Part shown: in pieces, positions 20,459 through 61,932 of the stretch
Position numbering within the stretch: position 1 is the stretch's first letter
Layout of the letters: each line of letters begins with the position of its first letter
Origin: Squalus acanthias
Lineage: Eukaryota
Direction of reading: 5' to 3'
Assembly: GCA_030390025.1 (NCBI GenBank)
Contig: CM059434.1
Location: 37,262,001 to 37,326,000, forward strand
Length of the DNA stretch: 64,000 bases
Notes under the pieces: model-generated
Database searches by the model: none
The model's input: only the letters and a program-made list of their open reading frames with translations
What the model was told of the DNA's origin: nothing
Translations under genes and position numbers: made by a program

Positions 20459-21274
20459 GGGTGCAATTTTGCCAGCCCTGGGGAGGCGGGTTTGGAGGTG
20501 GGACTGCCAGGAAAGTGGCAGAATTTGGGGGAGGGTGCCCAACCTGCCTCTGTGCCATCTTGCCAGGAGGCAGGAAGCCGTCCCGCGCCGGGTCCCGTCT
20601 CCTTGGAGGCGGGAAGGGATTACAGCCACTTAACTGCCAGTTAACAGGCAGATAAGCGGATTATCCCCATTTTGCCCACACAAGTGCGGGCTTCCCGAAG
20701 GCTCCAAAACCCGCCAGGGTCACCGAGGCAAGTAGTGGGTCTGCGGGGGTAGGAGGGTTCCAAAAGTGTGCTGTGGAGGTGAGTGATGGGTGCAAGTGTG
20801 GAGAGGTGAGTATCTGAAGTAAGTGCAAAGTGTTATTAAAAGTGTACTTACCTTTGTTTCTTCCTGCAGGCTTCAGTTGGTGGGTATGCGGAGAGTCTCG
20901 CACCTCCGCGGTAGAGATGACAGATGGCCGTTGCATGCAACAACCATCTAATTTCTACAAAAGAAAGAGTTTTGATGAGGTCTTGAATTCAAGAACTCAT
21001 CAAACTACAGAGAATGTCAGTGTTTGACAGCTTCACAGAGCTGTCAAACGATGACAATTCATCTGTCAAAAATTTTTGACAGATGAAGTGTCATACGTTC
21101 ACATTCTCTGTAACCGGCTTCCCCTTAATTGGGCTACTAAGCCCGCTGGGCGGGCGTAACAAGGTCAATCAAGGGAAAATAGCGTGGGTTGGCCAGAAGT
21201 TGATGGAGGCGGGACTGAAACCCGACAAGTGGGAGTCCTGCCTCCAAAAGCTCCCCATTGGCAAAATCCAGCCC
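20459..21274. mobile_element. Family A TIR element (Harbinger-like MITE)
   Basis: GGGTGCAATTTTGCCA ... TGGCAAAATCCAGCCC, flanks TAT/TTT; interior collinear with 44167-44923. Confidence 0.75.
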
Positions 21275-26254: not shown

Positions 26255-26893
26255 GGGCTGGATTTTCATTGACCCGTGGACGGGGGTTTGGAGGCGTGTG
26301 GGGAGTTAAAATTGCGAAAACTGGTGGGCGGGCACAAGTCCGCCTCCATCCCGTCTCCACGCAATTTTCATTAAATCGTGTCTGCTGGTCCTGACTCTGT
26401 CCCGCCTTTAAGAGGCGGGATAGGCTGTTAAGGCCCTTAACAAGCACTAAATTGGCTCTATAATGCCATTTTGAAAGGCCCTTGTGATTTTAACCCTTGT
26501 TCTACGTGAAGCACGCCTGTTCTCAACCACGATTGTTGAAACCTGGCTGGCTATGGGGATGCATATATGGATGGATGGAGAGGAGACATATCTGGGAGTG
26601 GTGGTGTAAAAATATCTGGGAGCAGACTTAGGGCTGCTGCTTATTTTGCAGGTCCTCTCACAACAAAGGCCAGGCAGTCTTTGAAGACCTTCAATGCAGC
26701 AGCAATGATGACATCATCAAAGGCGACTTTCAGACTGAAAACACCAATTGGTTCATGGGTTCCCACATGCTGGAACTCAATTGCCCAATTAGGTGAAAAT
26801 TGCATCAATCTCCCACATCCAATTGCAGTCGGGTGGATAACACGAAAAGTGGATGACACGACCCCAACCCGCCCCAGTATCAAAATCCAGCCC
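26255..26893. mobile_element. Family A TIR element with AAT TSD
   Basis: AAT|GGGCTGGATTTT ... AAAATCCAGCCC|AAT, a perfect 12-bp TIR; interior homologous to 54669-55453. Confidence 0.88.
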
Positions 26894-42292: not shown

Positions 42293-42686
42293 CATCACCT
42301 CTGCTGCTTTTTGCTAATAGACGTGACGTCAGATTGGTAGATGCAGAAACAGCGAGACCTGAATCTACTGTAGTCGTCAGTGGTCTGGAGGATGCAGCTG
42401 CGGTTGATTTTTTGTACTCCGAAGGTGTGATTTACTGGACTGACGTGAGTGAAGAAGCCATTAAACAAACATACGTGAACCTAACTGGGAATGTGCAGAA
42501 AGTGATCATCTCTGGCCTGGTTTCACCAGATGGATTAGCTTGTGACTGGTTAGGCAAGAAGCTCTATTGGACAGACTCTGAAACTAATCGGATAGAGGTT
42601 GCCAATCTAGATGGAATGTCTCGAAAGGTCCTTTTCTGGCAGGATCTTGATCAACCAAGGGCTATTGCTCTTGATCCACAGCATGG
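42293..42686 (+). CDS. LRP5: LRP5 exon 2, start of YWTD beta-propeller 1
   Basis: Acceptor ttttcttgtttctccatAG, donor GG|GTAAGT; translates (A)[17 protein letters not shown]...[25 protein letters not shown]...[32 protein letters not shown]...[18 protein letters not shown]; residues FANRRDV, KQTY, GLVSP, KKL, QDL and HG are LRP5-type rather than LRP6-type. Confidence 0.96.
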
Positions 42687-44166
42687 GTAAGTGTTTAATT
42701 TTTGCCTTGCTTTTTCATTTCGAGAGCTGACAAGTTCATGATTTTTGAATTTTGGCATGGAAGTAGAAATTTGATATCTCTCCCCTGCTGCTACTACCTT
42801 TCAAAGGTATTATTTTCCTTCCATGTAACTGAACAGATGTTTAGACTTAACGAGAAATGCTATGGCATGCACTCGTGGACAATACCAACCTTCAATAAAA
42901 GCTAAATTGAAGTTAATGTGGAAAAAAAGGACAATATTGTTGTTTCCCCCTCCCTTTTAGAAGTCTGCTTTTCTTTTCAGCGATCTCCACATACCACTGG
43001 AATAGCCCATCAGGAATATTTTTATTCTCTATTATTCCACTGCAGCCATCTGGAATTTAATTTCAATTTATTTTCTGCAAAGCACATTTTGTAAGAAAGG
43101 AAGTTGATTAAACAGTCAGTAATTAATTAGTGTGGGATGTCGCAAATTGACAGAAAGCTGTTTTCCTTTGGAGGTTTATGTTAAGTGATAGAGTTTACTG
43201 TGCAAAACCTTTGATGGTTTCCCAGGATCATGTATATTTTTTCTGATGTAAATAAATGAGCTATGCTCTGTCAATATTGTAAGCTGACCTGTAGAAGTCT
43301 CTTTCTACAACTTGTGAATACAGAGGATATCGGGTGCAGTCGGTGGTCAGTCTGGTAACACGGTAGAGTTCTGGAAGGCAGTCGGTACCCATTGAACCAT
43401 ACCTCATCATGAAGAAATACTTCCACAATAAGAGGAGAAAACATTGGAGAGAGATTTAAAAAACTGGTTGCTTTTCACAGCCCTTGACTTTTTTAATTGC
43501 GTGCAACGATGTCCAAGAGTGAAGTGCTTGGTGACTTAAGCAACTGATGATGTTTAGAATGGCTGCAGTAAATAAAAATTTCCACGCAACAGAATTGGGA
43601 ACTCTGCCATGAAGTCTTGGACTTCCCAGTGCTGGTACCACAATACAGCTACTTTATGGAAGGGTTTGATGCTAGGAAGTCCAGGACATTATGTCAGAGC
43701 CCCTGATTTTGTCTTGGTCCCTGAAGGGACGATCAGTGGGAAATGAGAGCCAAGCAAGTTTGTGTTTGCCTTGGCTGTGAAAGGCCTCACTGTTGCAGCA
43801 ATTGTAAACTTCATACAAGCTGTAAAAGAGTTAGGGGAAACCATGCTCTTCAGTCATCTATTTTAACCCGGATGAACAGGTTGTACAGCTAAACCATTTA
43901 CCATTACTAAATATAAGCTTGATTTTTTTTTTACAGGAGCTATACACCATAATTAAAGTAAACTTTTGGTGACTGGTGTGAGCTTTGAGTGATTATTCTG
44001 TACATAACTCAATCGCTTTTTTAATTTAATTTTTTTCTTGAACAATTTTGGCTCAGATTCTTTTTATTCTTCCTCTCCTGAAGATGTTCACTTATGCTGG
44101 AGTATGATTCCATAGCATCAGCAGCACTCCAGTACTTCATGGCCAGTTTTCAATATTAGAAGCTAA

Positions 44167-44923
44167 GGGCTGGATTTTCAATGACCCGTGGAGTCGGATT
44201 TGGAGGGGGCGGGGGGGGGGGGTTAAAGTTGCAGATTCGGGGCTCCCGACCCCATCCCGCCCCCAACCCGCCTCCATGCCAGTTTCGCTGGCGGCGGGTT
44301 CCCGACCTGTGCTGGGACCCGACTCCCCGAGGCGGGAAGGGATTAGTGACAATTAACTGCCTGTTAACAGGTAGTTAACAGGCAGTTTTTTGCCTAATCC
44401 CTATTTTGAAAGGTGAAATGTGGGCTTCCCGACAGGTGCCAACCACGCCAAGTTATCGGGGCGGACCGTGGGTCTGCAGGGGTTGGAGGGGTCGATATGT
44501 CCGGTGGGCAGGTGAGTGATGGGTGCATGTGTGCAGAGGTAAGTGTGTAAGGTAAGTGTAAAGTGTGGGAAAAAGTTTTACTTACCTTAACTTCCTCCTG
44601 CAGGTGTCAGCCCTTCAGTTCTCAGGAGTCAGAAATCTCACCGGCACAGAAAGCAGAAAGGCCGTGGTGCTGTCAAAAACTGCAGCCTTCTGCTTTCTGT
44701 GCTGGAATGATTTCTAACTCAGCCTGAGAGGAAGGACTCAAGTTAGAAGACAAATTGTCAGTGTTTGACAGCTTCACAGAGCCTGCTGAGCTCACTGGGC
44801 GGGCTCAACCAGGTCAATCAAGGGAAAATACAGTGGGTTGGCCACAAGTCGATGGAGGCAGGTCTACAACCCAAAAAGTGGGATTCACGACCCCAACCCG
44901 ACCCCAGTATCAAAATCCAGCCC
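44167..44923. mobile_element. Family A TIR element with TAA TSD
   Basis: TAA|GGGCTGGATTTT ... AAAATCCAGCCC|TAA. Confidence 0.9.
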
Positions 44924-45254
44924 TAAATGTTGAATGTTAGAAGTCTATTTGATCATGAGGATTGGAAGGGACATCACAGCTAAGCCTGATTGACCATACC
45001 CGATGTATGTGTCCGTGCGTGCGCCAGACCTTCCCTGTTGGATTTGGGTCTCCATAGCTGTCTCATCCAGCATTTGTTACAGAACCACAATGATCGTAAC
45101 TATATAAAAAAACCTAAATCTGCCATTGTTGGTTAAGTAGTCCAGCAATTTCTGCAGTTTGTGCCTTGACTGCAATTGAAGTATTGAACGCCTTGAAGTT
45201 TAGAGATTGCAACATCTGTAGTTAGTATAAAGACTTGTTAGTTTGTAAAAAGCA

Positions 45255-54668: not shown

Positions 54669-55163
54669 GGGCTGGATTTTCAATGACCCGTGGAGTCGGG
54701 TTTGGAGGCGTGTGGGGGGTTAAATTTGCGGGGTCGGGGGTCCAGACCCCATCCCGACTCCATCCCGCCTCCACGCAATTTTGACAAAATCAGTCGCGGG
54801 GTTCCCGACTCCGTCCCGCCTCCAAGAGGCGGGAGAGGCCATTAAAGCCCTTAACAAGCCCTAAATTGGCTCTGTAATGCCATTTTGAAACGTTTTAGCT
54901 AGTTTAACCCTTTTCCGACGTGAAGTACGCCTGATGTGAAACACGCCAGTGAAACCTGGCGGGAGCACAAGTGGATAGCTGACTATCAGCTGCAGGTCCA
55001 CTATTACAACGGAGATGTGATAAAGGTAGTAGTAGTATTAGGTCTGAAAGTTGATGCTGCTGCATTGAATGTATTCAGAGACTGCCTGGCCTTGCTGTGA
55101 GAGGACCTGGATGGAAAAAAAGTCTCTGTCTCTCTGTCTCTCTGTGTCTCTCTGTCTCTCTCT

Positions 55164-55198
<35 letters not shown>

Positions 55199-55453
55199 AT
55201 TTTGCATCCAGGTCCACTCACAGCAAAGGCCAGGCAATCTCTGAGACCAGGCAGTCTCTGCAATGATGACATCATCAGAGGCGACTTTCAGACTCAAACC
55301 ACTAATTGGTTCATGGGTTCCCACATGCTGGAACTCAATTGCCAATTAAGTTAAAATTGCATCAATCATCCACATTAATCTGGAGTCGGGGGGGGGGCAA
55401 CACGAAATGCGGATCACACGACCCCAACCCGACCCCAAGACAAAATCCAGCCC
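54669..55453. mobile_element. Family A TIR element with TTT TSD, nested in CR1 ORF2
   Basis: TTT|GGGCTGGATTTT ... AAAATCCAGCCC|TTT; removal restores aag gct ttg tgt ctt aat gcg (KALCLNA). Confidence 0.92.
55123..55197. repeat. Compound microsatellite (ctctgt)n + (ctg)n
   Basis: Direct reading. Confidence 0.9.
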
Positions 55454-60970: not shown

Positions 60971-61932
60971 GGGGGCTGAATTTTAATGGGGAAGACAGGT
61001 TGAGAGGGGGGGGGGCTCCGGTGCAGTCGGGAAACCCATTTAACAGCAGGGACTGATTTGCATGGGAAGCCTTTGTTTCCCACCCGCAGCCAGCCAGATT
61101 GAGAGGAAGCAGAGAGGAGAGAGGGAGGGATCGCTTGGGGGGGCGGGGGTTGCCAAGAGGATCACGGCCGGAAGAGTGGGAGTGGGCGGGGGAGTGTCGG
61201 AAGAAGATCGGTTGGGGCGGGAGGAACGGGACGCTGAAGATCATGGACCGGGAGCAGCACGGCGGGGTGTCTGAAGGGATAGTGGGCCACAAGCAACACG
61301 GAATGGTGGGTGTCTGAAAGGATAGTGCGCCGAGAGCAACATGGTGGGGGGGGGGGGCGGGTCTCAAGGGATCGGGGCCGGGAGTAGCATGGGGGAGGTG
61401 GGTCGCTGAAGGATCGGGAGCAGCACTGGGAGGGCCGGAGGAGGTGGGGTGAGGGAGGGAAGGCCTCGTGGGGGGATCGAAGGCCTGCTGGTGGGAGGGT
61501 GTCGGAGGCCTTGTGGAGGTGGGGGGGTCTCCGATCGCAGGGGTGGGTTAGGTAGGGACGTTGGATCCAGGAGGTAAGTGTAAAGGCACTTTGTCCTTGC
61601 CTTCCATTAGCTAACGGGTTACACGAGGCCTGCAAAACCCGACCAGCTAAAGATAAATTAAAAATGGAGGTTAAAGCAGAGGCTTCCAGCCTCATTATAA
61701 TATTTAAATAGAGGGCTTACCTCCTGGCAGCGGATTGGCTGCCCGCCCCCCCCCCCCGACCCGGAAGTGGGCGGGTTGGAGGTGGGGTCAGGTGAGGATT
61801 CACATTTTTAACACTAATTTCCCACACGCCCCCAATCCACCCCTTTTTAAAAAAATTCCCCCAGTGTCGAAAGTAGAAAACTGTTCCACCCTCAGCACTG
61901 ATTTCCCTCGCCTTGACCACGAAAATCCAATC
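60971..61932. mobile_element. GC-rich TIR-like element with internal short tandem units
   Basis: GGGGCTGAATTTT start and GAAAATCCAATC end (imperfect); repeats gggagcagcac and gtctgaa.ggatagtg; cccacacgcccccaa matches the reverse of the family A subterminal ttggaggcgtgtggg. Confidence 0.55.

Follow-up and report, generated by a model that had tools for sequence, protein, structure and literature searches.

A cassette of conserved splice signals, with a predicted short intron on each strand, inside a non-autonomous Harbinger element of Squalus acanthias

Why should a transposon that lies within a gene carry four strong 5' splice sites and an acceptor in 92 nt? One such element is found in the 64,000 nucleotides of Squalus acanthias DNA analysed here (the window), where the cluster of sites lies 1.8 kb downstream of the end (42686) of an exon. 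In this exon (42293..42686, plus strand) lies the coding sequence for the first YWTD propeller of a receptor of the LRP5/6 type, and its alignment begins at residue 1 of LRP6 chains; the gene is probably LRP5 rather than LRP6. The element that bears the module is intronic in this gene and is oriented in its sense direction. One can ask whether the signals are real, what has kept them, and whether they act on the gene or on the element itself.

All the signals listed in the original prediction were found in their places by direct reading. On the plus strand, donor 1 (CAG/GTGAGT, 44509..44517, intron start at 44512) is followed by donor 2 (GAG/GTAAGT, 44536..44544, intron start at 44539) and donor 3 (AAG/GTAAGT, 44549..44557, intron start at 44552). 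A motif at 44578..44588 can be read on both strands, as a plus-strand branch candidate with its A at 44584 and as a minus-strand donor, AAG/GTAAGT (44580-44588). It overlaps a CTTAAC (44586-44591) and the pyrimidine tract (89% pyrimidine) that leads to a CAG acceptor (44587..44603). The claim of four donors and an acceptor in 92 nt holds: four AGGTRAGT matches are seen where 0.006 are expected per 92 nt on both strands, and dinucleotide shuffling of the stretch, done 20,000 times, never gave more than two. It is confirmed that the splice signals are real and far beyond chance. The four donors are not independent, since donors 2 and 3 belong to a tandem repeat of 13 nt and donor 3 makes up an inverted repeat of 10 bp together with the antisense donor. 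Eight of the nine AGGTRAGT matches in the window fall in Harbinger-type elements.

From donor 1 to the acceptor a GT-AG intron of 92 nt is predicted (44512..44603, plus strand), with the features of a U2-type intron, i.e., a donor, a branch candidate, a pyrimidine tract, a YAG and a workable length. The mini-intron that was originally claimed is correct in length for donor 1; from donors 2 and 3 the introns would be 65 and 52 nt long. The element is covered in contigs, of uncertain kind, from five of the eight sequencing runs examined out of 24 listed, and no joint at either the plus or the antisense intron is present in those contigs, a result that speaks neither for nor against splicing.

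The element spans 44167..44923 (plus strand) and lacks ~90 nt near 44781 relative to its 844-nt family. It is flanked by a TAA target-site duplication on the left (44164..44166) and on the right (44924..44926) and ends in perfect terminal inverted repeats of 12-13 bp at 44167 (44167..44178, plus) and 44912 (44912..44923, minus). Its full-length relatives have ~845 nt and are 96-97% identical to it. An exact 3-bp duplication was seen by eye in 20 of the 27 copies in which both ends could be placed (3 of 30 could not be placed); these duplications are A/T-rich and mostly not TWA, which was found in just 5 of the 20. Similar GACTC/GAGTC words are found to either side of several copies, as if a palindromic target longer than the 3-bp duplication were preferred. 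In the 3.7-Gb assembly, a 14-mer from the right half of the element has 17,065 exact matches compared with 13 for a control 14-mer, which puts the copy number at no less than 17,000. No match to a transposase or to a Myb protein was found inside the element, which is non-coding. With its inverted ends, its 3-bp duplication, the ends that it shares with coding relatives, its short non-coding sequence and its high copy number, it is a non-autonomous PIF/Harbinger element (MITE). The splice sites are found mid-way, 300-440 nt inside it. A sister-subfamily copy, ~30% diverged, lies in the same window (20459..21274, plus strand) and carries the same module at about 20740-20870. The module-bearing family is also deeply covered in contigs of three other organisms (runs X1-X4 and X9), which indicates a family common to related species.

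Conservation was analyzed in 79 copies that were drawn regardless of the module, namely the first 90 of the 17,065 matches to the 14-mer outside it together with the two copies of the window, less 13 that were dropped (9 truncated or nested, 1 interrupted, and 3 from a distant family). The median pairwise distance among these copies is 0.22 and the maximum is 0.35. Donor 1 is kept in 75 copies, donor 2 in 73 and donor 3, which is lost in one subfamily, in 64; the CTYAC of the dual-reading motif is kept in 71 and the YAG of the acceptor in 77, and both ends of the plus intron are intact in 75 of the 79. Variation hits the positions that splicing leaves free, as donor position +3 switches only between A and G (one exception in 237) and acceptor position -4 varies while the CAG stays. 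When an allele found in three or more copies is called shared, shared alleles occur in 5 of 30 motif columns versus 407 of 706 other columns (p 1e-5; 1e-4 without CpG columns), in 29 of 59 columns of the module spacer (p 0.003 against the motif) and in 5 of 6 free positions. Alleles seen in a single copy, on the other hand, are as frequent in the motif as the background rate (0.67 per column versus 0.58 elsewhere). The contrast between shared and single-copy alleles, 5 versus 20 in the motif and 551 versus 415 in the rest, gives a Fisher p of 3e-4 (7e-4 and 2e-4 at other thresholds), with alleles counted rather than events; neither the columns nor the shared alleles are independent of one another.

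Motif columns thus rarely differ between subfamilies and yet take single-copy changes normally, and we read this as a constraint that would have acted on the copies that kept transposing, with none after insertion. It agrees with the original view of a mobile, family-wide module in a Harbinger MITE whose signals are conserved between subfamilies. Neutral decay across copies, which that prediction had named as the finding that would speak against it, is what the inserted copies show; the divergence between subfamilies does not follow it.

One explanation for such conservation is that GGTRAG is a site at the DNA level, bound by a host factor or by the Myb-like protein of the element, or a product of conversion in tandem repeats and hairpins, so that the likeness to splice sites is incidental. 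The motif does occur in both orientations, several palindromes outside the module are conserved to the same degree as the donors, and the 3' flank of donor 1 is conserved past the splice consensus. For conservation, donors 1 and 2 are among the best 2% of 789 windows and donor 3 only among the best 12%. Moreover, two-sided changes between subfamilies are seen in other hairpins, among them the one at 44626-44720 and several in the right half. What this explanation leaves without a cause is the acceptor, with its kept CAG, its free -4 position, its pyrimidine tract and a TAG in the distant family, as well as the near-constant intron lengths; conversion between donor and anti-donor would also yield two-sided changes, and these are absent. 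We therefore consider it unlikely. In the family alignment, the best-kept blocks outside the module (44350-44392, a palindrome in the left half, and 44755-44780) are palindromes on AACTG/GTTAAC and TGACAG/CTGTCA, which presumably resemble Myb and TALE-homeodomain sites. The two-sided hairpin changes are compatible either with RNA structure or with DNA template switching.

In the original prediction the antisense donor was seen as a mimic of the U1 5' end that pairs with an adjacent donor and masks it in cis. A helix between donor 3 and this anti-donor is indeed predicted in the 44167-44923 copy with a pair probability of at least 0.99, and the sister copy pairs donor 2 instead. The covariation that such masking calls for was not seen in the 79 copies, where two-sided changes number 0 for donors 1 and 2 and fill 2 cells for donor 3; in 8 copies two donor/anti-donor pairs are broken with no compensating change. 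The CTYAC in the anti-donor puts its A 19 nt upstream of the last intron base, in the region expected for a branch site. Given this distance and its retention in 71 copies, the anti-donor is most simply explained as the branch site of the plus strand. The CTTAAC that had been proposed as the branch is present, as said above, but it is exact in just 28 of the 79 copies. The anti-donor is better read as the putative branch site of the 92-nt plus intron and, at the same time, as the candidate donor of a 112-nt antisense intron.

The same data bear on the gene. A self-masking, U1-docking switch that acts on the splicing or polyadenylation of the host gene might be suspected from a copy that lies in the sense direction 1.8 kb past an exon and whose donor-3 hairpin is predicted to be stable. 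Yet donor and anti-donor do not covary, the sister copy pairs a different donor, in inserted copies the loss of motif bases runs at background rate, and the copy in the gene is young (96-97% identical to other copies). Such a switch seems to us highly improbable. No sign of a role at the LRP5/6-type gene is found in the single-copy changes of the motif columns across 79 copies, which leaves the proposed host-gene function unsupported, and this copy is most probably a passenger in the gene.

Another hypothesis is a small non-coding RNA gene, in which a spliced transcript would carry exonic hairpins that give rise to small RNAs. It could draw on the long imperfect hairpin found directly past the plus acceptor (44626..44720), with its two-sided changes between subfamilies. 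However, no Rfam match reaches the gathering score (17 weak hairpin matches), and the sequence of the hairpin differs strongly between subfamilies, so that no seed is kept. This makes a small-RNA gene very unlikely.

On the minus strand a GT-AG intron of 112 nt is predicted (44474..44585), with its donor at 44585 and a C-rich tract before a CAG that ends at 44474; its ends are intact in 70 of the 79 copies. The three bases of its acceptor have no shared variant and the base at -4 varies. Its pyrimidine tract is weaker than that of the plus intron, being poor in U (12%). The plus donors read CTYAC on the minus strand and are antisense branch candidates, of which donor 1 (as CTCAC) lies 39 nt before the end of the intron. 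The reverse complement of a donor matches the branch consensus, which allows the same stretch to be used on both strands.

One copy of the family (L402, at G000:C15:67481719) has both ends and the duplication and lacks exactly the antisense intron. The junction is ambiguous by 2 nt only, and a 14-nt tandem duplication lies ~20 nt away. A wider deletion pattern, written after this copy turned up, returned the copy itself, one other deletion and one unrelated match. The exact antisense junction corresponds to 3 of 496 placements, or ~1% for two deletions, before microhomology bias and the testing of two strands are taken into account. Loss of an intron after splicing in the germ line is hinted at by this copy; it may also be a DNA repair event, with which the nearby 14-nt duplication fits. 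For the plus intron no intronless genomic copy was found: the exact-junction search gave one match, outside any MITE, and its control one, and a wider pattern gave 2 matches versus 9 for its control, with no such copy among the matches printed. Two further ideas were rejected. If the minus strand held the only real intron, derived from intron 1 of the Myb gene, homology would be expected, and a profile search found none; pairwise comparisons gave weak scores, with a nominal p of at most 0.03 in 4 of 10 on the minus strand and in 0 of 10 on the plus strand. A short reading frame across the plus intron begins at an ATG that is absent from the sister subfamilies.

The origin of the module can be approached from coding relatives with the same ends, which were reached by a Myb-domain search and which carry a transposase gene and a Myb-like gene that face each other. 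The left 295 nt of the element (44168..44461, plus) match the transposase-side end (E 5e-16), from which a promoter would face inward on the plus strand. The right end (44816..44923, minus) matches the Myb-gene side more weakly (E 0.023 for the 44167-44923 copy, 4e-5 for a full-length copy and 4e-12 to 2e-22 for more distant copies), and here a promoter would face inward on the minus strand. A distant family, ~43% diverged, is collinear with the element over its full length (E 1e-92 or better) and its alignment takes in the entire transposase leader on the left and, on the right, reaches the first codons of the Myb gene; homology of the module with the transposase leader is seen via this family (E 2e-29; profile positions 3-504). 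The element is therefore a derivative by internal deletion, with the module in the old transposase leader. The alignments show a transposase-side end joined to a Myb-side end, and the plus strand is the sense strand of the transposase.

Could the module then be the relic of a spliced transposase leader, inherited from an unsampled coding parent and functionless since? The position fits, since the module lies in sequence homologous to that leader, and donor-like sites are present in leaders of other coding Harbingers of this genome. Forty coding regions were fetched, of which 32 leaders were usable (3 were without an anchor and 5 were filtered out), and GGTRAGT is found on neither strand in any of these 32 leaders of the matching clade. 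In addition, all subfamilies share one deleted structure, so that up to 35% divergence postdates the loss of the genes, and yet the motif resisted change during this time. The idea of a relic intron, which was part of the original prediction, is right about the position and finds no parental donor in the sampled leaders; we hold it to be doubtful. In the distant family (L274, L302, L338 and L372-L401, with 2,872 first-look candidate loci) a perfect plus donor is found at another place in 28 of 30 copies, a second donor in 24 and a YAG acceptor (TAG) in 28, and the antisense donor in none of the 30. The 32 coding leaders have no donor at that other place either. As the donors are absent from the leaders and displaced in the distant family, the non-coding lineage seems to have acquired them itself and to have replaced them over time, unless they go back to an unsampled parent. 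A coding element with the leader of the distant family was looked for, and no transposase continues from the leader in 30 loci (of 40 matches). The top-scoring transposases and the first Myb set were rejected as parents because they belong to other Harbinger families.

Other Harbinger-type elements of this genome were also seen. Another MITE family of the same coding clade (54669-55453 and 26255-26893) is closer to the parent (E 1e-51) and shows only a weak AAG/GTAGTA site. GGTRAGT is found in none of 25 copies of this family, which indicates that such donors are not needed to spread. A further element (60973-61860) has an AG/GTAAGT at 61572 with an inverted counterpart near 61717, next to a CCAAT box and a GC box. 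Finally, many near-identical open Harbinger transposase frames of ~390 codons (L061-L090 and L207), with other ends, are paired with a Myb gene, and this family is probably active, as judged from its frames. For elephant shark no active family is reported (PMC9179366).

The explanation that we favor, at a probability of about 0.45, is that the element carries mid-way a spliceable cassette, with a predicted short intron on each strand, which was kept because U1 recruitment and splicing by the element's own transcripts favored the copies that went on transposing. That the signals serve these transcripts rather than the host gene is likely. Both ends of the element may have remained active in the germ line as promoters that face inward, and a strong 5' splice site near the start would shield the transcript from early termination by Restrictor or by cryptic polyadenylation. 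In human cells such a site blocks Restrictor independently of splicing, and the fly ortholog of Restrictor was found via termination at transposons, as described in the available parts of the two reports (PMC12211998; PMC10760643). Shielded transcription might in turn keep source copies open to the transposase and make them better substrates. Several points count against this explanation: the MITE of the same clade that spread with no such donors, the want of a plus-intronless copy and the antisense donor missing from the distant family. In addition, a cut-and-paste DNA transposon moves without the need of a transcript. In a more specific version, which we regard as rather unlikely, the MITE would have evolved an ambisense intron after gene loss, with each donor as the branch site of the other strand, and its mRNA-like transcripts would escape termination or silencing and be selected through raised transposition. 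Escape from HUSH was rejected as the mechanism as it fits poorly: HUSH targets long intronless DNA and protection from it does not depend on splicing, according to the part of a review that was available (PMC7619638).

If the favored explanation is true, selection on a MITE would extend past the ends that bind the transposase to signals of RNA processing. The spread of non-coding DNA transposons would then be linked to the U1/Restrictor checkpoint, with a bearing on why some MITEs outgrow their parents, and tens of thousands of ready first-exon cassettes would lie across the genome. The module is real, and the function suggested for it is an unproven proposal. In the literature searched, from which most subscription journals, Repbase and supplements were outside, neither splice signals in shark Harbinger MITEs nor a two-strand intron in a MITE was found.

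Several known systems can be compared with this cassette. In introners and in the maize elements Ds and dSpm the whole element is removed from the host RNA via its ends, and in SOS splicing a DNA transposon is reportedly linked to RNA splicing as well. The likeness lies in the link between a DNA transposon and splicing; here, in contrast, splicing would take out no more than 92 or 112 of ~845 nt, and because the sites lie in its interior the element is not an introner. Vertebrate minimal U2-type introns have GT-AG ends, a GTRAGT donor, a branch-like motif ~20 nt before the end, a pyrimidine tract and a length of ~90 nt. The plus intron shares these ends, donor, branch spacing, tract and length, and differs in its stacked extra donors, in the overlapping antisense intron and in being known from DNA sequence only. 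In its short inverted repeats, 3-bp duplications, lack of coding sequence and ends common with elements that bear genes for a DDE transposase and a Myb-like protein, the element resembles Tourist-like PIF/Harbinger MITEs, as these are described in the available parts of two studies (PMC4482050; PMC9179366); unlike them, it has splice signals in its interior, which are conserved from one non-coding subfamily to another and which the sampled coding relatives lack. The strong donors shortly inside a promoter-like end also recall the protection by 5' splice sites from Restrictor (ZC3H4-WDR82) and U1 telescripting, which the accessible parts of the sources describe for host and reporter transcripts (PMC12211998; PMC10760643), whereas a transposon that carries such a signal for its own benefit is what we propose here.
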